Shown here piece after piece: positions 1 through 10,617 of a stretch of DNA of 64,000 nucleotides. Numbering within the stretch: position 1 is the stretch's first letter; the number at the start of each line of letters is the position of its first letter. The position numbers were made by a program, and so were the translations under genes. The DNA lies in NCBI RefSeq assembly GCF_054482525.1, contig NZ_CM137006.1, one strand, 5' to 3'. Under the pieces are notes generated by a model, which saw only the letters and a list, made by a program, of their open reading frames with translations, had not been told where the DNA came from and did no database searches.

Positions 1-96
1 TTTCCCGTTCGTTAACAAACAAGTGCGCCATCTCATATCCGCTCCTTGCGGAGGCTTACGTCTGCATGTCAGTTACTCATTAAAGGAATATCAGAA

Positions 97-630
97 ATGA
101 ACAATTCACCCTTACTCAACCATTACCAGGCCTGGCTGGATGATTTTACCCGCGTCAGTCTGTTCCACGGTTTATGCCAGAAGCACATCTCGCAGTGGCA
201 CAGGCTGGCGATAACCGCCTGCCCGATGCCAGGCAGTAGCGTAACAGAAGTCGTCATTCCACAGTGTCTGCTGCCGGTTACCCGCACCAGTCGACTGGGA
301 TCATGTACTGTCGCCCCCGGTCTGACTAAACACATCGATTATGCCCTTCTGCCCGGTGTGCTGCTCAGCGAATGTTATCGACTGGGGAAAAGTCGGCTGG
401 CAGACCAGTTACAGATGTTATTCCGGCTTAATGTACAGTCCGGTATGCGCCAGGCGCTGATCCTGCTGTGCTGGTGTGAGCTGGCAACAGGTAAGGATAT
501 GGAGGAATGGTATGCGCTGCATCTGCCACTGCCTGACACGCTGACGCAATGGTTGGCAGTAAAACAGCGGGCATACCGGGGACTGAAGACGCTGACTGAC
601 GGTTACATTCGTGCCACCCAGCCGATGTGA
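97..630 (+). CDS. hypothetical protein (island cargo, no domain recognised)
   Basis: Long ORF in six-frame track (46..630); ATG at 97 preceded by aggaa is the likely start. No motif recognised by eye. Confidence 0.35.
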   Translation: MNNSPLLNHYQAWLDDFTRVSLFHGLCQKHISQWHRLAITACPMPGSSVTEVVIPQCLLPVTRTSRLGSCTVAPGLTKHIDYALLPGVLLSECYRLGKSRLADQLQMLFRLNVQSGMRQALILLCWCELATGKDMEEWYALHLPLPDTLTQWLAVKQRAYRGLKTLTDGYIRATQPM

Positions 631-640
631 GGGACGGATA

Positions 641-1024
641 ATGCTGATACCAAAATGCTATATTGCACAGCGTAAAACCGGTGAGATTTTCGCTGTCAGC
701 CAACTGAATTCAGGCGATGAAGAGTGGTTCTGCCATCACTGCCAGTGCCCGTTGATTTTCCATTCCCCCACCATAACGTCACCGCCCTGGTTCGAACACG
801 ACATACTTCAGGGACAACCAGAAGCACTGTTGCAATGCCCCTATCTGGCCCCCGTCAATGCAAAGCCTTCAGCGGTGGCTAAGCTACAGCGCCTTCTGGC
901 ACAACTCCCACCGGTCATCACGACCACACAATGGCAATGTACCATGTGCGGCCTGTCATATTGCGGCGAGAAGTGCTGCCCTCAATGTAGAAAAGGGATA
1001 TATAGTCGGGAGATACGAATTTAG
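641..1024 (+). CDS. hypothetical Cys-rich protein (several CxxC-type pairs, possible zinc-binding)
   Basis: ORF 611..1024; ATG at 641 after gagggacgg. Translation contains CHHCQC, CTMC, CGEKCCPQC clusters. Confidence 0.35.
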   Translation: MLIPKCYIAQRKTGEIFAVSQLNSGDEEWFCHHCQCPLIFHSPTITSPPWFEHDILQGQPEALLQCPYLAPVNAKPSAVAKLQRLLAQLPPVITTTQWQCTMCGLSYCGEKCCPQCRKGIYSREIRI

Positions 1025-1351
1025 TGATACGTACCAGGCAATCATGGGATTGATTGGTACACCAGAAAGTTATTATATGGGGGCATATAACTTCGGAGTA
1101 AAAATCAATCACTTTCTATCATCCGGCCCCTGGTGCTTGTGGATTCGTAATTCATAAACCATGACGGGTTGGTAATATTAATTAACCAACTGATATATAA
1201 ACAATATTATCTCATTGTCACGCTCATATACGGTTACTCATACACGACAGCCTTAATTGCTGGCATCACCCTTTAAATCCTTAATCCCTTTAACAGCCCA
1301 TTGCGGGTAAGGCTTTGCCCTGCCCGTAATTTATTACCCAAGGAAAATTAT

Positions 1352-1963
1352 ATGTTTGACAATATCTGTCTCGATAGACGGCATGCACCATTCAACACCA
1401 CTTACCTACAGCGTATTCTACGCGTTATAGATAACGCGACTGCAGAGCATGCACGGACGATGGCAGTTCGGGTAGACCTGCGTCTTCCTGACAATATGCT
1501 CATTAACCGACAGGGCCTGATATCTCGTTTCATTGAATCCCTTGATGCAAAGATTGCAGCGCGCTACAGAAGTAAGTTGAAGCAGGGTAAACGAACATAT
1601 CCATGCCACCTTCGCGATGCCTGGGTTCGGGAGGTGGGTGAGATTAATCAGAAATCGCATTACCACATGGTGTTGTTCGTGAATAACGATACATTCAATG
1701 GGCTGGGGAGTTACAAAGAAGATGGGACGGGCCTGGCGTCCTTGATACGAGAGGCCTGGCTGAGTGCTTTACAGCTTAGTCACCGCCCAGAGCACTGGAC
1801 GCTAGCCCACTATCCCGATAATCCACTTTATTTTCTGGATATTAATTCCGCTGGCTACAAAGAGTCTTATGACCAACTGACGTTTCGGTTAAGTTATTTT
1901 GCGAAGGAACGCACCAAAGATTACAACAGGGAGGAACGTTCATTCGGATGTAGCCAGGGCTGA
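1352..1963 (+). CDS. YagK/YfjJ-family protein (inovirus Gp2-like domain common in CP4-type islands)
   Basis: ORF 1301..1963; ATG at 1352 after aaggaaaa. Translation (MFDNICLDRRHAPFNTTYLQRIL...) resembles YagK/YfjJ proteins as I recall them. Confidence 0.55.
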   Translation: MFDNICLDRRHAPFNTTYLQRILRVIDNATAEHARTMAVRVDLRLPDNMLINRQGLISRFIESLDAKIAARYRSKLKQGKRTYPCHLRDAWVREVGEINQKSHYHMVLFVNNDTFNGLGSYKEDGTGLASLIREAWLSALQLSHRPEHWTLAHYPDNPLYFLDINSAGYKESYDQLTFRLSYFAKERTKDYNREERSFGCSQG

Positions 1964-2753
1964 ATTCGGTACATCGTTTTGCTGGTGGCACTATATTTGC
2001 GCCACAACGCCATAGTGTGTCAACCACACCGCTATTCCCCTCACAATACCGTTAAACCATTCAACCACATGGCGTCAGTCTGCCCATCAAGGGCGGCTTA
2101 CACCTGCTTGCAGAAGTCGGATTATATTTGACGCCAACGACGGTAATAGTCGTTTGACGAGCGCCAGAACGGTACAGAAAGATATATAGTATCGTAGGCA
2201 GGCTTGATACCCCTGTTATCGTGCAGTCTTGGCACTGCGCTTGGTTCGGATACCATTACTAGGGCAAAAAGCACTGTGTGGTCTGTGGTATCGGGAAATA
2301 TAGCACGGAAGAATCAAACTGGCTGATGAATGACACCAGAGCGCCTGCGTGAGGTCCACCGTATTTCCTCCAACCAACACAGAGAAAAAATCATAATGAG
2401 CTACCACCAGTTAATCATCACAAATACAAAGTCGGCGGACAGTGCACGCATTCACCACGTATTACAGCAACCCGGATGGTTTCGAAATACAATTGGCAGC
2501 GTTGAAAGAGGTTGCATTGCAAATGGTTTTTTCAGTGATGACTGCCTGCAGTGACCTGTTTAAATGATCACTGTCACGTTATCTGGATTGCGCAGTTGCT
2601 TGGGTTGCAGTATGTCTCATCTTAGACTGTGTTGATGTTATTGTTGAGATCAGCACTCCGGCAGATGGCCAAATTCAGTAAACCACTTCAAAAGGCACAT
2701 TTATGCAACCTCATCAGCGGTGACCCGTAAAAATTGCAAATTAAGGAGCAATA

Positions 2754-4853
2754 ATGAACCGAGAGCAAGCCCAACAACTGCTGCAGACTGCTTTGGCTAA
2801 CCCTGCTGCTGAATTTCGTGATGGTCAGTGGGAAGCCATTGATGCATTGGTTAATCGTCGTCAGAAACTACTGGTTGTACAGCGTACCGGCTGGGGTAAG
2901 AGCTCGGTTTATTTTATTAGTACTAAAATCTTCCGTGACCGCGAGATGGGGCCTACGATTATTGTATCGCCACTGCTTGCATTAATGCGTAACCAGATTG
3001 ATTCAGCGCAGCGTTTGGGAATAGTTGCCGAAACAATGAATTCGGCTAATAGGGAGGATTGGCAGGCTGTAACTCAACGAATTCTCAATAACCAAATAGA
3101 CTGTTTGCTCATTTCCCCAGAGCGGCTAGCAAATGATACCTTTATTGAGACGGTCCTTCAGCCCATTGCCGATCGAATCGCCCTAATGGTAATTGACGAA
3201 GCACACTGTATTTCAGATTGGGGTCATGATTTTCGTCCTGATTATCGCCGTATCGTAAATATCCTTCGTCAATTGCCCGCCAACACCCCAGTACTAGGTA
3301 CGACTGCAACTGCCAATAACCGAGTTGTTGACGATATCCAAGCCCAGCTTGGGGATATACAAATCCACCGAGGTCCTCTTACTCGCGAAAGCCTCGCTCT
3401 GCATACAATGTCTTTACCCGATCAGGCATCTCGTTTAGCTTGGCTCGCCCAAGTTATTCCGATGCTACATGGAACAGGCATTATTTACGCATTAACAGTT
3501 CGTGATGCCGAGCAGGTGGCAGAATGGTTGAGCATGCACGGTATAGTTGCCATGGCATACCACGGTAGCATCGAGGCTGAAGGTTTTGAGAACAGCAATG
3601 CTTACCGTCAGTACTTAGAAGAATTGTTACTTAACAACCAGCTTAAGGTTTTAGTAGCAACGACCGCGTTGGGTATGGGTTATGATAAACCTGATTTAAG
3701 TTTTGTAATCCATTACCAAGCTCCGAGTTCAATTGTTGCATACTACCAGCAGGTGGGTCGGGCTGGGCGCGGTATTGCTCATGCAACAGGTGTACTGATG
3801 TCGGGGATAGAAGATAACGACATCCATGATTTTTTCCGTGATTCTGCATTTCCATCGGAGGATCAAGTTAACGATATTCTTCGAGTGTTGGAAAATAATG
3901 ATGGTCTATCACTCCGCAACATCGAGGAAAAAACTAACCTACGCCACGGCCAGATTGAGAAAGTACTTAAGTTACTGAGTGTAGAAAATCCAGCCCCCAT
4001 CATTAAAAATGAAAATCGTTGGGTTAGGACCACAGTTCGCTATCAAATGGATCATGCCCGAATTGCTCATTTGACAGGACAACGTATTCAGGAATGGGAA
4101 GAGGTTCAAGCGTACCTTACCGACACTGGATGCAAAATGGCATTTCTACGTCGTTCTCTGGACGATCTCGACCCAACTCCATGTGGTAAATGCTCGTCCT
4201 GTATTGGTCAACCAATTATAAATCAAATCATTGACCCTGCTTTGGTACATCGTGCAGGGACTTTCCTAAAACATGCAGAAATGCCGATTACTCCAAAAGC
4301 TCAGGTAGCAGCTAATGCTTTTTTGCAATATGGCTTCAGCGGCAATTTGCCACAGCAGATTAGAGCACAAGAAGGTCGAGTGTTGTCTCGCTGGGGAGAT
4401 GCTGGTTGGGGACGGTTAGTAGCCGATAATAAACGTGCAGATCACTTTGATGATGAGCTAGTGGTTGCTATGGCCGAGATGATTCAGCAGCGTTGGCAAC
4501 CGAATCCAGCGCCACAATGGGTATGCTGTGTACCTTCACGCAATCATGTACAATTAGTCCCTGATTTCGCTCGCCGCTTGGCGGCATGTTTGAGGTTGCC
4601 TTTTTTCAATGCCATCAGCAAGGTTAGAGATAACCAACCTCAAAAGGGGCAACAAAACCGTTTCCATCAATGCCGCAATCTGGACGGTGCTTTTGAGATA
4701 AATCAACCTCTACCTAACACACCGGTTCTACTTGTAGATGACATTGTAGATTCAGGCTGGACGTTAACTGTCATCGCAGCACTCCTACAACGCGCAGGTA
4801 GTGGTAAAGTATACCCTGTTGCACTTGCTTCATCTTCGGTAAAAGACTCATGA
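2754..4853 (+). CDS. RecQ-family helicase fused to a C-terminal phosphoribosyltransferase-like (ComF-like) domain; ShosT-like candidate
   Basis: 699 aa ORF. N-terminal RecQ motifs (FRDGQWEAI, TGWGKSSVY Walker A, DEAHCISDWGHDFRPDY); C-terminus has a PRTase-type motif (VLLVDDIVDSGWT). RBS aaggag upstream. Confidence 0.75.
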   Translation: MNREQAQQLLQTALANPAAEFRDGQWEAIDALVNRRQKLLVVQRTGWGKSSVYFISTKIFRDREMGPTIIVSPLLALMRNQIDSAQRLGIVAETMNSANREDWQAVTQRILNNQIDCLLISPERLANDTFIETVLQPIADRIALMVIDEAHCISDWGHDFRPDYRRIVNILRQLPANTPVLGTTATANNRVVDDIQAQLGDIQIHRGPLTRESLALHTMSLPDQASRLAWLAQVIPMLHGTGIIYALTVRDAEQVAEWLSMHGIVAMAYHGSIEAEGFENSNAYRQYLEELLLNNQLKVLVATTALGMGYDKPDLSFVIHYQAPSSIVAYYQQVGRAGRGIAHATGVLMSGIEDNDIHDFFRDSAFPSEDQVNDILRVLENNDGLSLRNIEEKTNLRHGQIEKVLKLLSVENPAPIIKNENRWVRTTVRYQMDHARIAHLTGQRIQEWEEVQAYLTDTGCKMAFLRRSLDDLDPTPCGKCSSCIGQPIINQIIDPALVHRAGTFLKHAEMPITPKAQVAANAFLQYGFSGNLPQQIRAQEGRVLSRWGDAGWGRLVADNKRADHFDDELVVAMAEMIQQRWQPNPAPQWVCCVPSRNHVQLVPDFARRLAACLRLPFFNAISKVRDNQPQKGQQNRFHQCRNLDGAFEINQPLPNTPVLLVDDIVDSGWTLTVIAALLQRAGSGKVYPVALASSSVKDS

Positions 4854-6175
4854 ATGTATCTAACTTATTGTCAAAAACAGCCCAGGCGACCTTACTTCTG
4901 ACTAGTTATTTTTCTAAAGCAACTAGCGAAAACGCCAAACCACTTTCCAACGCCGAATGGGGACGTTTTGCGCTATGGTTGAAAGAAAAAGCAGTTACGC
5001 CAGCTGACTTGTTGGACTCTGATCCTCAAACCTTACTGAATGGCTGGTACGACTCCCGTATCAGTACGGATCGGATCATTGAGTTGATGAATCGAGGACA
5101 TAGCCTCGCTTTGGCTATGGAGAAATGGCAACGGGCAGGCTTGTGGGTAGTGACACGTTCTGATCCAGAATATCCATGGAGATTAAAACATCGGCTTAAA
5201 ACAGACTCTCCCCCTGTTTTATTTGGCTGTGGCAATAAAGCCTTATTAAATAGAGGGGGATTGGCTGTCATTGGTTCTCGAAATGCCAATGCATCAGACC
5301 TTACTTTTACTGATCACATCGGCGTTAAAGCTGCGGACGAAAATATAGCTGTTGTATCTGGTGCTGCACGTGGAGTAGACGAAACAGCCATGTTAGGTGC
5401 AATGAGGCAAGGTGGAGTTGTAATCGGGATTTTGGCAGATAGCCTGTTAAAAGCTGCGACTAGTGCCAAATGGCGCAAGGGGCTTATGAATGACCATGTT
5501 GTGCTAATATCCCCTTTTTACCCTGAGGCTGGTTTCTATGCGGGAAATGCCATGGCTCGCAATAAATATATCTATTGCTTGTCGGATAGTGCATTGGTTA
5601 TTCATTCTGGTCGAAAAGGTGGAACAATTAGTGGGGCAGAGGAAAATCTTAAGAAAGGATGGGTGCCACTATGGGTCAATCCAACAACCGATCTAGATTC
5701 AGCTAATGCTGACTTAGTGAGCAAAGGGGGACATTGGTTGCCAAGTGATAGTAATGGCCTATCCATCGAGAATTTGCTTAAAAATAATGACAGATCAAAA
5801 ATGCAGTTAAAAGCAGAGCCCCAAGATCTTTTTTCAGAATTGTCGCATCCAGAATTAATTATTGGATCTGCAGAGAAATCGTCAACTCAAGCTCTCGAAA
5901 AAGATTGGACTGCTACTATTAATGAAGAAACTCCCAACCTAATAACTACGGAAAAAAAATTAGAGGAAAAAGAGTTAGATGTAAATCCTATAGACTTTTA
6001 TCTGCTATTCAGGACAGAATTACAGCGATTGGCCGAACATCCAATTACAGTAGATAGGTTGACAGAAGTCACTGGGTTGAATAAATCGCAAGTGCTTGAT
6101 TGGTTGAAACGTGCTGAACAAGATGGTTTGGTAAAAAAACTAAACCGTCCTACAAGATATCAATTAAATGAGTAG
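4850..6175 (+). CDS. DprA/Smf-like Rossmann-fold protein; ShosA-like candidate
   Basis: 441 aa ORF whose ATG overlaps the upstream stop (ATGA). DprA-type motifs: LAVIGSRNAN, VVSGAARGVDETAMLGA, ARNKYIYCLSDSALVIHSG. Confidence 0.7.
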   Translation: MNVSNLLSKTAQATLLLTSYFSKATSENAKPLSNAEWGRFALWLKEKAVTPADLLDSDPQTLLNGWYDSRISTDRIIELMNRGHSLALAMEKWQRAGLWVVTRSDPEYPWRLKHRLKTDSPPVLFGCGNKALLNRGGLAVIGSRNANASDLTFTDHIGVKAADENIAVVSGAARGVDETAMLGAMRQGGVVIGILADSLLKAATSAKWRKGLMNDHVVLISPFYPEAGFYAGNAMARNKYIYCLSDSALVIHSGRKGGTISGAEENLKKGWVPLWVNPTTDLDSANADLVSKGGHWLPSDSNGLSIENLLKNNDRSKMQLKAEPQDLFSELSHPELIIGSAEKSSTQALEKDWTATINEETPNLITTEKKLEEKELDVNPIDFYLLFRTELQRLAEHPITVDRLTEVTGLNKSQVLDWLKRAEQDGLVKKLNRPTRYQLNE

Positions 6176-6356: not shown

Positions 6357-7346
6357 TTATGTCTTTCTTTCAAGTGCAACTCCTAGATCCGCTGCCATTT
6401 TTTGGATTAGCCTCCAATCTAGCGGCCATTCTTTTTCTAAAGTAGATCTCCGTCTTTTGATTAACCAGTAAACGAAAATAACAACGCTTTGTTCAAAGAA
6501 ACTACTCCCTTCTTTGCCATCCTGAATTAGTAGTTCGAGCTCAGGAGTCTCTTCTATAAATTGATGTAATCTTTCTATCGTATCGGGTTTGATCACTTCT
6601 TTAAATGTATCTAGAATTAATAAAGTCGATTTTTGATTGTTTGGTTTATTCTTTGTTAAAGCTATGTAGATATTATCTAAAGTTCGCTGAATTCCTGCGT
6701 AACCATCAGATGCTGCGTTAATTGCTTTCGATACTGAACAGAAAAAATCATCCGTAGTTTCTATTAACGCCATGCTTTTTGCTACAGTTCTATGTATATC
6801 TGGTTCAACTATAGTTTTTGCTTTATATATGGCATCATGAGTTAACTCGGCATAGGCATGTTGTAATAAAGATCTAACCTGTATCTCACATGGAATGCCT
6901 TGTTCAATGATAACTCCATTATAATCAAAGGATTCTTTTGCAGTTACTATAAAATGTACGGATTGATACGTGAAAATTAATGGTGTATTTAATCTTTCTT
7001 CTTCGTAGTGTCTTGATGTCTTATAATGCCATTTATTACTACTTTTTATTATTTCACATATTTCATCTATATCTGAAGTAAGTAAAACGACAAACCTGAT
7101 GCCAACTTTATCTTCAATCTCTTGGTAGGGGTTTTTGTATGATTTTTCTTTTCGATGAAAAGCTTTATCGATTAGAGATGTCTTTTCTTTTATTCTCGGT
7201 GTCGCAGGTTGCTTGAGAAAGCTATTGAGGTCCCGCTCTTTATTTTCTGAGAGTTCTTTGCAAATATTTGAGACGACAAAATCTCCCCATGCTTTATACA
7301 TGGGTAGTTCTTTTTCCCAAAGTTGCGAAAACTCTAATTCATTCAT
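6357..7346 (-). CDS. RelA/SpoT-domain nucleotidyltransferase (alarmone-synthetase-like, stand-alone)
   Basis: 329 aa ORF. Synthetase-domain motifs GIRFVVLL, YQSVHFIV, EIQVRSLLQHAYAELTHD; no hydrolase or TGS/ACT region seen. Start ATG 8 nt after upstream stop. Confidence 0.65.
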   Translation of the reverse strand: MNELEFSQLWEKELPMYKAWGDFVVSNICKELSENKERDLNSFLKQPATPRIKEKTSLIDKAFHRKEKSYKNPYQEIEDKVGIRFVVLLTSDIDEICEIIKSSNKWHYKTSRHYEEERLNTPLIFTYQSVHFIVTAKESFDYNGVIIEQGIPCEIQVRSLLQHAYAELTHDAIYKAKTIVEPDIHRTVAKSMALIETTDDFFCSVSKAINAASDGYAGIQRTLDNIYIALTKNKPNNQKSTLLILDTFKEVIKPDTIERLHQFIEETPELELLIQDGKEGSSFFEQSVVIFVYWLIKRRRSTLEKEWPLDWRLIQKMAADLGVALERKT

Positions 7347-7354
7347 TAATTAGC

Positions 7355-8446
7355 TCATTCCTGAAGGGTTATCTTGTCCTTGATGAGGATTGTTGTCCAC
7401 TCAGCAGGTTTACCATCTTTATCGAGTTCACCTATAGTAGATTCAATTACAATATGGCTTTTAAAAACTTCCGCAGGGGCTGTGATTTTTATATTTTTAC
7501 TAAAGTTAAGCTTTCTTGTTTTTAATTTGCTTTCAATATGCTCGTTGTCTCTTGTGAAAGAGGTTTGTGGTATACCAGATTCATGAGCATACTCAAGATA
7601 AAGATCCTTAATACTATCATCAAAAAATCTTTCAGCATAATCTTTAGCTGAAATTACATCCGATTTTTCATGTTTAAGATATGTAACTAATGCATTTTTA
7701 AGCACATTTTTCTTTTCCTCGCTGACATCCAATTCATTAAGAAATTCACTCGTTTTTTCATAGAAATTCTTTGTTGTGCGGGCACTTGTTTCTGGGTAAC
7801 CGCAACCTAAAAAATTTTGATAAAAATATTGTGCTGCAGCTTTACCATCCGACTTACTGATTTGATAGTCAGAAATCATCACATCCCAAGATTTATTAAG
7901 ATCAGTATTATCAAGAGAATTGGTTGATTGGAAAAAACCGGCAGTTTTATAAAGTTTTGTGGATGGTGTAAGTAATATTTCTTCAACGAATTTTAATGAT
8001 ATTTGGCCCGTTTTATCGTCGATTACTTTTTCATATGCACTATAAATATCAGCCTTGATAATTCCAATGAATTTTCTTTTATTTACACCATAGTCGCCAG
8101 AAAAGATTACTACAATTCCGCCTGGAATTGCTCGTCTTGTCTGCGCATCTGCCAGTTTATTAGCTATTGTGTAAGTCTCATCAATATAATCCTCTCCCTC
8201 TTTATCAATTAAAGTTGTAGCAATATAAGGAACATAATCTTTTCCATGCTCCTTTATTTGCATTTTTACGGCTTTAGAACCATCACCTAAAGCGTCGATT
8301 ACTCGTGATTTAAAACCTTGCAAGGCATCAGCATCAAATTTTATAAATGAAGAACCTCTTGTTGGTTCTATTTTGTTTCCTTCTTCGTCGCGCTGATGAA
8401 TTTGGTGGATAATTATTTTGTTAATATTCATTTTGCTGATATTCAT
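7355..8446 (-). CDS. NdpA/YejK-like (NA37 family) nucleoid-associated protein homologue
   Basis: 363 aa ORF. N-terminus IIIHQIHQRDEEG resembles the E. coli YejK IALHQLIKRDEQ region as I recall it. AT-rich. 17-nt gap to upstream gene. Confidence 0.55.
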   Translation of the reverse strand: MNISKMNINKIIIHQIHQRDEEGNKIEPTRGSSFIKFDADALQGFKSRVIDALGDGSKAVKMQIKEHGKDYVPYIATTLIDKEGEDYIDETYTIANKLADAQTRRAIPGGIVVIFSGDYGVNKRKFIGIIKADIYSAYEKVIDDKTGQISLKFVEEILLTPSTKLYKTAGFFQSTNSLDNTDLNKSWDVMISDYQISKSDGKAAAQYFYQNFLGCGYPETSARTTKNFYEKTSEFLNELDVSEEKKNVLKNALVTYLKHEKSDVISAKDYAERFFDDSIKDLYLEYAHESGIPQTSFTRDNEHIESKLKTRKLNFSKNIKITAPAEVFKSHIVIESTIGELDKDGKPAEWTTILIKDKITLQE

Positions 8447-8463
8447 TTCTGTGTAGTTCCATC

Positions 8464-8931
8464 TTATTGATTATCTGATTTTATATTTTTGCTTTCAATA
8501 TATTCTTTGTGAATATTATTCCATTCTTGACTGTCTTTTTCCCAAATAGATTTATATTCATCAAAAAGACTATCAATATCTGACTGGGTTACATCTTCTT
8601 TGGATTTTAAGTAATTAACTTTGTTTCTAAGTTGATACATGGCTAGCAAAGTAGCTTTTTGCCTAAACCATAATTTTTGATAATCAAATCTTGCAGTCCA
8701 CCCACTAACTAGAGTAAGACAGGCACTCACAATAAGAGCAGAATTTTTCTGTATTTTTTCATATCCAGATAAATCGAAGGCTAATATCAGTGTAGTAATA
8801 GTGCTCAAAAATATAGTCATGAAAAAAAATATTTTTAATTTTTTTTTATTCCATTTCGCCTTGCACTTTATTATGTTGATACTTTTATGGATTTCATCCA
8901 GTAAAAACTGTTGAGAAGATGTTATAGACAA
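8464..8931 (-). CDS. small membrane protein with two predicted transmembrane helices (SLATT-like topology, unverified)
   Basis: 155 aa ORF; hydrophobic stretches IFFFMTIFLSTITTLILAF and SALIVSACLTLVSGWTA. First codon is TTG; an internal ATG (MTIFL...) is an alternative start. Confidence 0.45.
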   Translation of the reverse strand: MSITSSQQFLLDEIHKSINIIKCKAKWNKKKLKIFFFMTIFLSTITTLILAFDLSGYEKIQKNSALIVSACLTLVSGWTARFDYQKLWFRQKATLLAMYQLRNKVNYLKSKEDVTQSDIDSLFDEYKSIWEKDSQEWNNIHKEYIESKNIKSDNQ

Positions 8932-9175: not shown

Positions 9176-10378
9176 TTACACTACCGCATGTAAGATTCTA
9201 CGTACAGAGTGTAGATCAATCAAATAGTCTGAATACCACTGCATCATCTCTCTTCGCCCCTCCAGATATTGCGCATGGTTGTACGTCCCACGAATCGCAT
9301 TCTTATCGACATGCGCAAGCTGGGTTTCAATCCATGCCGTGTTGAACCCTTCCTCGTGCAAAATCGTACTCATCGTGTGACGGAAACTATGCCCCGTTAC
9401 CTTCCCCGTATACCCAATCCGTTTGAATACCTGATTAATACTCGCTTCACTCATCGTTTTACGTGGATCATTGCGCCCTGGGAACACCAAAGGATATTGC
9501 CCGGACATTACTTTGAGCTGTTGTACGATTTCTAGCGCTTGGGTAGAGAGGGGTACAAGATGGGGCCGTTTCATCTTCATACGCTCTGCAGGTATTTCCC
9601 ACACCGCTTTCTCAAGATCAAACTCACTCCAGAAAGCACCTCGAAGCTCGCCAGTACGAACTCCCGTAAGGATAAGCAGACGAGCGGCAAGAACAACTAA
9701 CGGGCTTCCTGTATAACCTGCGAGAGCTTTAAAGAAGTCTGGTAACTCCTCTACTGACAGGAAGGGATAATGCTTCGATTCATGCCCTGACATCGCGCTG
9801 GTTAGGTCCGCTGCAGGATTGTATTCCGCGCGACCTGTAACGATGGCATAACGAAAGACTTCGCTGCAGCGCTGGCGAACCTTCTTGGCCTTCTCTGTCG
9901 CGCCACGGCTTTCGATTCGACGCAGCACATTAAGCAGAACCAGCGGTTTGATTTCATTCACTGGCAGTTGGCCGATATAGGGGAAAATATCTTTATTGAA
10001 GGCTTCGATAATATCGGAGGCATAGCCTTCTGACCACCGGCTCACCTTAGTACCGTGCCACTCAAGCGCCACAGACTGGAACGTGTTGTTGAGCTGCACA
10101 TCGCGAACCAGCTTTTCTTCTTTCTTTGCGAAAGACGGGTCGATACCCTCGGCCAGCTTTTTCTTGGCTTCATCACGCAGAGCCCTCGCTTGTGCAAGGG
10201 AAACAGCCGGATAGACCCCAAAAGCCATACGCTTCTCTTTTCCATTGAAGCGATATTTCATTCGCCAGTATCGAGAACCAGAGGGAACGACTTCAAGATA
10301 CAAGCCAGCACCATCTGCCAGCTTATAGGCTTTCTCTTTGGGTTTAGCAGCGTCTACCTGTCGCGCATTAAGCTTCAT
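9176..10378 (-). CDS. int: P4-type tyrosine integrase (site-specific recombinase)
   Basis: ORF 9176..10417; likely start is the ATG at 10378 (MKLNARQVDAAKPKEKAYKLADGAGLYLEV...) with GGAG 9 nt upstream. Sits directly beside the tRNA-Thr 3' end. Confidence 0.85.
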   Translation of the reverse strand: MKLNARQVDAAKPKEKAYKLADGAGLYLEVVPSGSRYWRMKYRFNGKEKRMAFGVYPAVSLAQARALRDEAKKKLAEGIDPSFAKKEEKLVRDVQLNNTFQSVALEWHGTKVSRWSEGYASDIIEAFNKDIFPYIGQLPVNEIKPLVLLNVLRRIESRGATEKAKKVRQRCSEVFRYAIVTGRAEYNPAADLTSAMSGHESKHYPFLSVEELPDFFKALAGYTGSPLVVLAARLLILTGVRTGELRGAFWSEFDLEKAVWEIPAERMKMKRPHLVPLSTQALEIVQQLKVMSGQYPLVFPGRNDPRKTMSEASINQVFKRIGYTGKVTGHSFRHTMSTILHEEGFNTAWIETQLAHVDKNAIRGTYNHAQYLEGRREMMQWYSDYLIDLHSVRRILHAVV

Positions 10379-10541
10379 TGGGGGCATCTCCCTGGACCGA
10401 ACACAGAATGCCCCCACTTATGCCCCCAACTGCGACTTGATTTCGGTTGAGTCCAGTTGATAACAGGAGATAAGATACGGGCCAGAAACCGCAGTATACG
10501 GGCTTTTAGTTGATTTCGGTAGACTTGGGAAGAGTTTGAAA

Positions 10542-10617
10542 TGGTGCCGATAATAGGAGTCGAACCTACGACCTTCGCATTACGAATGCGCTGCTCTACC
10601 AACTGAGCTATATCGGC
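10542..10617 (-). tRNA. thrW: tRNA-Thr (anticodon CGU), thrW-like
   Basis: Reverse complement reads GCCGATATAGCTCAGTTGGTAGAGCAGCGCATTCGTAATGCGAAGGTCGTAGGTTCGACTCCTATTATCGGCACCA, 76 nt with CCA end and anticodon loop TTCGTAA. Confidence 0.9.

Follow-up and report, generated by a model that had tools for sequence, protein, structure and literature searches.

A predicted HUH nickase of the YagK family and a conserved upstream box in a tRNA-integrated defence island of Escherichia coli

Defence islands inserted at tRNA genes of E. coli have been described as uncharacterised mobile genetic elements that carry genes of the "HUH family ... rolling circle replication initiation" type ("HUH Rep-like initiator"), are bounded by 16–20-nt direct repeats and hold RadC/ArdB/CbtA-CbeA modules at their far end (PMC12458937; bioRxiv 2025.09.15.676423). 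In Pseudomonas, "inovirus Gp2-like" proteins have been counted among the likely core functions of defence-carrying islands (PMC12595487; PNAS 2025). In E. coli K-12, YagK and YfjJ have long counted among the unknown "y-genes"; the islands in whose core their relatives are found carry a large share of the anti-phage defence repertoire between Enterobacterales, Vibrio and Pseudomonas. Here we characterize a yagK gene and its surroundings in an island found in a 64,000-nt stretch of contig NZ_CM137006.1 (RefSeq assembly GCF_054482525.1), hereafter called the window. An initial annotation, made from the sequence alone, had singled out positions 641–1963, where it saw a Cys-rich small protein and a YagK-family protein at the distal end of the island and held that their function could not be inferred from sequence. 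Both open reading frames exist (641–1024, 127 aa; 1352–1963, 203 aa): they are annotated, match Pfam domains and are under purifying selection, with ratios of nonsynonymous to synonymous substitution (dN/dS) of 0.07–0.18. Homologues were found and both frames are conserved across Enterobacterales, contrary to the outcome that was to have refuted that annotation. For YagK its view of function was too pessimistic, as HUH and YxxK motifs, the predicted fold and family links all point to the Rep-class HUH nickases of single-stranded DNA (ssDNA).

HUH motifs and predicted fold of the YagK-family protein

The yagK gene (1352–1963, plus strand, ATG start; RefSeq WP_000460022.1, "inovirus Gp2 family protein") matches YagK_YfjJ_C (PF11726, the "inovirus Gp2 family" of NCBI) at 9.3e-48, with 162.8 bits against a Pfam gathering cut-off of 25.8. 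This match, together with the domains of the island integrase, bears out the earlier assignment to the YagK/YfjJ family typical of CP4-type islands with a P4-type integrase. Compared with orthologues from Yersinia, Hafnia, Buttiauxella and other genera, which were used for both genes, yagK has a dN/dS of 0.09–0.17. Five residues (E94, H103, H105, Y182 and K185) are invariant across 40 homologues whose identity goes down to 39%. H103-Y-H105, followed by MVLF, makes up an HUH motif that is invariant in these homologues and lies on strand 102–111 of the AlphaFold model. E94, the presumptive acidic third metal ligand, lies on strand 88–95, and the catalytic-Tyr motif Y182-F-A-K185 (YxxK), likewise invariant, lies in the C-terminal helix 169–184. 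The model is confident (mean predicted local distance difference test score, pLDDT, 91.8) and has the central antiparallel sheet with flanking helices expected of an HUH fold. Its best structural matches are HUH nickases: SIRV Rep, parvovirus NS1, Helitron, RepB and the replication initiators of microviruses.

Profile comparisons place the protein near phage initiators. With hhalign, the motif region aligned with the HUH motifs of P2 gpA (22%) and phiX174 gpA (10%), probabilities that are low and concern the motif only; E94 aligned with the E of P2 gpA (VVEP) and of phiX174 gpA (VPEY). The Pfam family REP_ORF2-G2P is matched by P2 gpA and by many YagK relatives, and by the YagK of the window at a sub-threshold 19.5 bits (cut-off 27.8). 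Neither the sequence nor its profile matched any PDB sequence, and searches of NCBIfam, PHROGs and PADLOC gave no functional name, the sole match being PHROG 25019 ("unknown function"). On the strength of motifs and modelled fold, YagK is very probably a single-tyrosine HUH nuclease of the Rep class, and its closest relatives appear to be the gpA/G2P-type initiators of phiX174-like and P2-like phages. The "inovirus Gp2" label is misleading, since the family is nearly absent from phages: a tblastn search with YagK matched one of 50,697 phage records, a 4.5-kb unannotated fragment, and a family relative was present at one locus in 2.9 million viral contigs. A true filamentous-phage inovirus gpII was rejected on this near-absence and on the sub-threshold REP_ORF2-G2P score. 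In the literature on YagK/YfjJ, "inovirus Gp2" and PF11726 we found no functional study and no published cleavage assay.

The conserved box upstream of yagK and its possible role

The 327-nt spacer between the gene of the Cys-rich protein and yagK holds a conserved non-coding box, TAACTTCGGAGTAAAAAT (1088–1105, plus strand), whose core, AACTTCGGAGT, occupies 1089–1099, 263 nt upstream of the yagK ATG. The 18-mer is invariant even where its flanks have diverged beyond alignment. Among 30 loci that had been retrieved independently of the box, 23 carry the 11-nt core AAYTYCRGAGT no more than 750 nt upstream of yagK on the coding strand, and it never occurs there on the opposite strand. These loci include some with about 40–50% YagK identity and no other DNA homology, as well as some with permuted gene orders; Kosakonia, whose module begins with yagK, and Vibrio, Oceanisphaera and Budvicia are among them. 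It is always upstream, at a distance of 190–650 nt. More distant genes, K-12 yfjJ and yagK among them, have variants such as AATTTAAGAGTAA and AATTGCAGAGTAA. An exact search of metagenomes with the 18-mer returned 32 matches, of which 18 were unlinked to an island (approximately the number expected by chance) and 14 were island-linked: 11 with yagK about 250–300 nt downstream, two running off the sequence with alpA alongside, and one in a rearranged locus.

The box is a single asymmetric 11–13-mer, followed by an A/T-rich run. It has TCGGAGT in common with the annotated nick site of the P2 origin (GCGCCTCGGAGTCC), and AACTT and the A/T-rich tail in common with the phiX174 origin (CAACTTG/ATATTAATAAC). 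Both phage nick sites are oriented as their initiator gene, and the box is likewise oriented as yagK. These resemblances are short and were spotted post hoc, and we treat them as a lead. Given this likeness and the family relationship of the protein, a nick site or origin for YagK is the most economical reading of the box, one that we put forward tentatively and at somewhat less than even chance. A small conserved open reading frame around the box was ruled out by a 1-nt frame-shifting indel between close relatives, and a UUCG tetraloop hairpin or a sigma-70 or sigma-54 promoter was discarded, there being no conserved flanking stem or -35/-24 element. Folded as DNA, the spacer (1025–1351) was not significant overall (z -1.4); a search of positions 1–2800 for repeats found no iterons or strong inverted repeats, and an Rfam scan of 1–3000 found no RNA family.

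What would such a protein do for the island? We give an even chance to YagK being its rolling-circle replication initiator. In the proposed mechanism, once AlpA and the integrase have excised the island, YagK would bind the box, which precedes the yagK gene by about 260 nt, and nick the box strand, with a metal held by E94, H103 and H105 and with Y182 forming a 5'-phosphotyrosine link. The free 3'-OH would then prime rolling-circle replication of the circular island by a host polymerase and helicase, and replication of the circle would guard the element against loss or amplify it for helper transfer. The broader idea that yagK and the upstream AACTTCGGAGT box form a minimal gpA-like origin module, common to a large family of tRNA-integrated defence islands in Gammaproteobacteria that includes CP4-57 and CP4-6, is more doubtful.

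Small plasmids offer a parallel. The complete, circular, 4,061-bp Psychrobacter plasmid pA46P2 encodes a YagK-family protein (PF11726 at 5.7e-15; REP_ORF2-G2P above threshold) beside a resolvase and three small open reading frames. As it has no other replication-type gene, the sequence suggests that the family can act as plasmid initiator. In a second small circular Psychrobacter plasmid, pA22P3, a YagK-like gene (REP_ORF2-G2P above threshold) stands beside a separate RepM initiator and thus need not be the replicase there, which leaves room for a relaxase-like role. The literature held no functional study of Psychrobacter plasmids with YagK-family genes that we could find.

The pA22P3 arrangement bears on an alternative in which YagK is a Rep-like relaxase and the box an origin of transfer, so that the excised island, as an integrative mobilisable element, is mobilised as ssDNA by way of the type IV secretion system that a conjugative plasmid in the same cell provides. 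The HUH chemistry would be the same, YagK resembles the Rep-related relaxases of such elements in being small, having a single tyrosine and lacking a helicase domain, and 69 plasmid records, of which 41 are conjugative, contain homologues. Yet these plasmid matches are mostly in large plasmids, and the smallest record examined (CP101363.1, 11.8 kb, linear) carries two Gp2 genes accompanied by integrase and AlpA genes and looks like a piece of chromosome wrongly labelled as a plasmid. Moreover, in structure as in sequence YagK is nearest to viral and plasmid replication initiators and not to MOB relaxases, and no coupling protein or accessory mob gene is seen in the annotation of the island. 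We consider a relaxase unlikely.

Nor is it probable that the box is instead a cis-regulatory element of yagK, either a promoter element or an operator for AlpA or another backbone regulator, with YagK acting elsewhere or mainly as a DNA-binding regulator. Its constant position upstream of yagK is what a regulatory site would show, autoregulation is common among Rep proteins, and a promoter-like site (1182–1210) and a conserved hairpin (1300–1330, plus strand) lie between box and gene. The hairpin, placed between the box and the yagK Shine-Dalgarno sequence, has 10+3 bp including G-T/G-U pairs; three of its 13 pairs show compensatory changes across 11 loci, and it is possibly a 5' untranslated region or regulatory element. 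An antisense transcript through the hairpin, recalling the copy control of rolling-circle plasmids, could start from a minus-strand promoter-like site (1374–1347, 10/12 matches); divergent loci do not keep its -10. The box itself, by contrast, has no dyad or repeat symmetry and freely diverging flanks, unlike typical operators, and there is no conserved -35/-10 geometry around it. Its likeness to known gpA nick sites also speaks against a regulatory site, and the invariant catalytic residues of YagK argue for an active enzyme.

The same residues bear on whether yagK and its zinc-protein neighbour (the Cys-rich protein; see below) are decaying leftovers of a cryptic prophage with no present function. 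For K-12 YagK and YfjJ we found no reported phenotype, yagK has become a pseudogene in E. coli T43, its product has no more than 139 aa in Kosakonia, and the zinc-protein gene is often frameshifted. Decay is nevertheless contradicted by the purifying selection on both genes and by catalytic residues that stay invariant across genera. The integrase, AlpA and 20/20 direct repeats of the island are intact, the non-coding box is conserved, and the same island with the same cargo turns up in metagenomes (two loci). We regard loss of function as quite improbable.

If YagK is an active nickase and the box is its target, these islands own an origin of replication or mobilisation, and models of how they are maintained after excision and spread horizontally would change. 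One protein and one 11-nt site would then offer experimenters a simple handle and help to annotate island backbones and the borders of hotspots. Should the two constitute an origin module, islands regarded as "cryptic, non-replicating" would gain an autonomous replication or ssDNA-mobilisation step after excision, and since the module sits at the edge of a cargo hotspot (see below), replication or transfer starting there might also drive cargo exchange. The box makes the nickase hypothesis directly testable, including in K-12.

Backbone module, cargo hotspot and island borders

The genes around the box form a backbone module in the order alpA, the gene of a 177-aa orphan protein, zinc-protein gene, box, yagK. 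More than 25 loci in 12 genera (Escherichia, Yersinia, Hafnia, Photorhabdus, Serratia, Buttiauxella, Rahnella, Enterobacter, Pectobacterium, Citrobacter, Ewingella and Kosakonia) share this module, sometimes in a permuted order. Of these loci, 22 are from species-representative genomes, and the others are E. coli, metagenome and K-12 loci; genome contigs were scanned with a 12-sequence alignment. In most of them DNA homology to the window breaks off almost at the yagK stop codon, no more than a few bases away; in two it stops 150–200 nt beyond. What follows differs from locus to locus: PsyrTA in this window (PADLOC PsyrT E=0, PsyrA 7e-170), Dpd in E. coli 2273-PO3, a BREX-like cluster of helicase-related and DUF1156 genes in E. 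coli T43, AbpAB and RnlAB after yfjJ in K-12 CP4-57, and type I restriction-modification, a type II methyltransferase, Gabija or BREX in other genera. As homology ends at the yagK stop and the cargo beyond it differs, yagK marks one conserved flank of a defence-cargo hotspot, the integrase being the other. The zinc protein, YagK and the orphan, none of which matched a PADLOC defence model, belong to the conserved backbone and not to the variable cargo. An IS91/ISCR/Helitron-type rolling-circle transposase that captures and exchanges cargo would account for the break at the yagK stop, but is highly improbable, as each island holds a lone box with no further (ter-like) copy, YagK combines a single tyrosine with the absence of both helicase and zinc domains, and homologous recombination at hotspot flanks would equally give a sharp break beside a conserved flank gene, as in other defence hotspots.

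The zinc-protein gene (641–1024, plus strand, ATG start; RefSeq WP_071526519.1, "putative zinc ribbon protein") encodes 127 aa with 11 Cys. Two Pfam families match above their gathering thresholds, DUF7828 (2.8e-18, 65.8 against 25.7 bits) and Zn_ribbon_11 (7e-11, 42 against 24 bits). The DUF7828 part, at the N-terminus, resembles a CoiA_N-like CCHC finger with ligands C31, C34, H53 and C66; the Zn_ribbon_11 part, at the C-terminus, has the spacing C100-x2-C103-x9-C113-x2-C116. Both ligand sets are conserved in 43 diverse family members, so that the suspected zinc binding is, judged from these alignments, very likely. All three Cys motifs that had been pointed out (CHHCQC, CTMC and CGEKCCPQC) are in the translation, but three of their residues, H32 (in CHHC), C108 and C112 (both in CGEKCC), are lineage-specific and not conserved. 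CoiA_N is matched by 13 of the 43 members (best E 2.4e-7) and double-zinc-ribbon families by most; the protein of the window itself has no CoiA_N match at E≤1. Against PDB sequences its sequence and profile gave weak zinc-ribbon matches only (RPB9, E 7e-4), a likeness that probably reflects Cys spacing. The profile and structure-prediction searches that had been proposed as a check thus yielded Pfam domains for both proteins and a confident HUH-like model for YagK, but a poor AlphaFold2 model for the zinc protein (pLDDT 64). NCBIfam, PHROGs and PADLOC supplied no functional name. An Ogr/Delta late-gene activator as in P2/P4 was rejected: Ogr_Delta was outside the 25 Pfam families most matched by the 43 members at E≤1, and the Cys spacing differs from C-x2-C-x22-C-x4-C.

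The zinc-protein family is narrow, with 114 representatives at 50% identity in 1.84 billion proteins, and its dN/dS against orthologues is 0.07–0.18. Wherever the flanks of a diverse locus extend far enough, the gene adjoins AlpA and a YagK-type HUH gene, and some islands hold two paralogues; neither a second copy nor a remnant of the zinc-protein gene or yagK was found in the rest of the window or in the 20 kb upstream. The zinc-protein gene is frameshifted in five loci (L002, L010, L014, L016 and L065) and absent from several islands that keep yagK, and the protein would therefore be an accessory, not an obligatory partner, of YagK. Its most likely role is that of a DNA-binding accessory or regulator that the backbone module can do without.

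Ten nucleotides upstream of the zinc-protein gene ends that of the 177-aa orphan (97–630, plus strand; RefSeq WP_001065873.1, "hypothetical"). It belongs to a small family confined to Enterobacterales, with conserved Cys, Trp and His positions, and accompanies AlpA, the zinc protein and YagK in most loci. Neither Pfam, NCBIfam, PHROGs, PADLOC nor PDB returned a match; orthologues are named "secretoglobin family protein" by PGAP, a name that looks spurious. A degenerate YagK paralogue was tried and rejected (hhalign probability 0.1%, no PDB match). The initial annotation had treated the zinc protein and YagK as a pair, yet the tighter pairing is that of the orphan with the zinc protein, yagK being more loosely linked and the gene order permuted elsewhere. 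It had also proposed checking whether the pair is conserved next to P4-type integrases; the module is conserved across Enterobacterales, and here the genes do not adjoin the integrase gene (9176–10378), which 7.2 kb of cargo separates from the yagK stop (1963).

That cargo begins with the defence/toxin-antitoxin pair PsyrTA (2754–6175, plus strand), which is of the RqlHI type and was identified by PADLOC, Pfam and NCBIfam. PsyrT (2754–4853, plus strand) is a RecQ-like helicase fused to a ComF-like phosphoribosyltransferase, and PsyrA (4850–6175, plus strand) a DprA/SLOG-like protein with a C-terminal winged helix-turn-helix. Between yagK and psyrT are 790 bp without an annotated gene (1964–2753). 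The first 150–200 nt or so are homologous to the spacer before a second zinc-ribbon paralogue in two Serratia loci (L022 and L023), and the remainder belongs to the PsyrTA cargo, which metagenome loci L043 and L052 carry beside the same backbone. A second cargo block (6357–8931, minus strand) encodes a RelA/SpoT-like nucleotide pyrophosphokinase (6357–7346), an NA37 nucleoid-associated-like protein (7355–8446) and a SLATT protein with two transmembrane segments (2TM; 8464–8931). PADLOC gave weak matches only (PDC-S33, 2TM effector), and the block looks like an uncharacterised candidate defence system.

The island as a whole is 23,566 bp long and bounded by exact 20-nt direct repeats (20/20), AAATGGTGCCGATAATAGGA, a sequence that recurs exactly once. 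One copy (10539–10558) is at the 3' end of a tRNA-Thr(CGT) gene (10542–10617, minus strand), the insertion site thrW, where CP4-6 sits in K-12. The other lies outside the window, at 6973–6992 of L001, an extended record of the locus that runs past the window start. The island thus reaches about 13 kb beyond that start, and the two genes that had been placed at its distal end are mid-island, at the junction of backbone and cargo; their position appeared terminal because the window edge cuts the island. From the far repeat inward come CbtA, YeeU, DUF987 and RadC, then insertion sequence (IS) remnants and an OLD/GajA-like nuclease; next, all on the minus strand, genes for DUF4339, DeoR/WYL, DUF932, a GTPase and a 352-aa protein. 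The plus strand then takes over with AlpA (L001 19784–19996, just outside the window and ahead of the orphan), the orphan, the zinc protein and YagK, after which follow cargo, integrase and tRNA. The P4-type tyrosine integrase (9176–10378, minus strand) has the domains Arm-DNA-bind_3, Phage_int_M and Phage_integrase. In sum, the island is an integrative element that sits at thrW, encodes a P4-type integrase, is flanked by 20-nt direct repeats, has a RadC/YeeU/CbtA "moron" end and carries exchangeable anti-phage cargo between yagK and the integrase.

Several further features deserve mention. A partial second integrase gene just beyond the far repeat suggests successive insertions. The gene of the OLD/GajA/AriA-like ATP-dependent nuclease (L001 10580–12313) lies inside the backbone between an IS3 pseudogene and a transposase fragment, and may be a second, IS-delivered defence gene. 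The 352-aa backbone protein (L001 17432–18490) has no Pfam match; its counterpart in a divergent island (L034 2719–3714, minus strand), encoded divergently from the alpA module, matches RHH_1 (faintly) and RepB-RCR_reg, a family of regulators of rolling-circle plasmid replication. From 10700 to 64000, in the part covered by L001, the window is ordinary E. coli core chromosome (proA, proB, phoE, crl, frsA, gpt, pepD, yafNOP, dinB and lateral-flagella remnants). E. coli SCU-102 (NZ_CP051753.1, reverse strand), the genome whose RefSeq annotation of the genes is cited above, is 100% identical to the window over 2,750 bases, and the island is rare in the species, being present at ≥99% identity in one of 5,426 complete genomes.

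Comparison with known systems

The island shares with those of PMC12458937 and with K-12 CP4-57 and CP4-6 a P4-type integrase at a tRNA gene, 16–20-nt direct repeats, an AlpA-like excisionase, a YagK/YfjJ-type "HUH Rep-like" gene, a defence payload and a RadC/antirestriction/CbtA-CbeA module opposite the integrase. It differs from them in its cargo, PsyrTA and the RelA/SpoT homologue/NA37/SLATT block, and from CP4-57 in having the orphan and zinc-protein genes at the position of yfjI (DUF3987). The zinc protein has in common with the N-terminal zinc finger of CoiA (CoiA_N) the pattern C-x2-C ... (F/Y)-x-H ... C; unlike CoiA it lacks the nuclease domain, carries an additional C-terminal zinc ribbon and belongs to a family confined to these islands.

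With the gpA/G2P initiators (phiX174 gpA, P2 gpA and Microviridae VP4; Pfam Phage_GPA and REP_ORF2-G2P), YagK has in common an E...pH(Y/F/W)H-hydrophobic motif followed by a Tyr motif. The weak REP_ORF2-G2P match and the structural neighbours of YagK in BFVD point the same way, as does a box that resembles their origin nick sites and is oriented as the rep gene. Those initiators, however, have 513–761 aa against 203 aa and a Y-x3-Y pair against one catalytic Tyr (YxxK); the candidate YagK origin is upstream of the gene, not within it, and the family is essentially absent from sequenced phages. No sequence similarity to YagK is detectable in SIRV1 ORF119, pMV158 RepB or the nuclease domains of CRESS-DNA and parvovirus Rep proteins. 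In contrast to the single-tyrosine HUH Reps of small replicons, YagK has no oligomerisation or helicase domain and resides in a chromosomal island, the exception being pA46P2, where the family member is the sole Rep candidate.

The HUH assignment is already present in annotation resources and in one preprint, and the gene identities are ordinary. To these the present analysis adds an explicit test of motifs and fold, a dissection of the zinc-protein domains and the borders of the island. In the literature on these islands, as far as its text was accessible, we found no mention of a box upstream of yagK; this conserved box and the hotspot edge at the yagK stop codon are what is new here.

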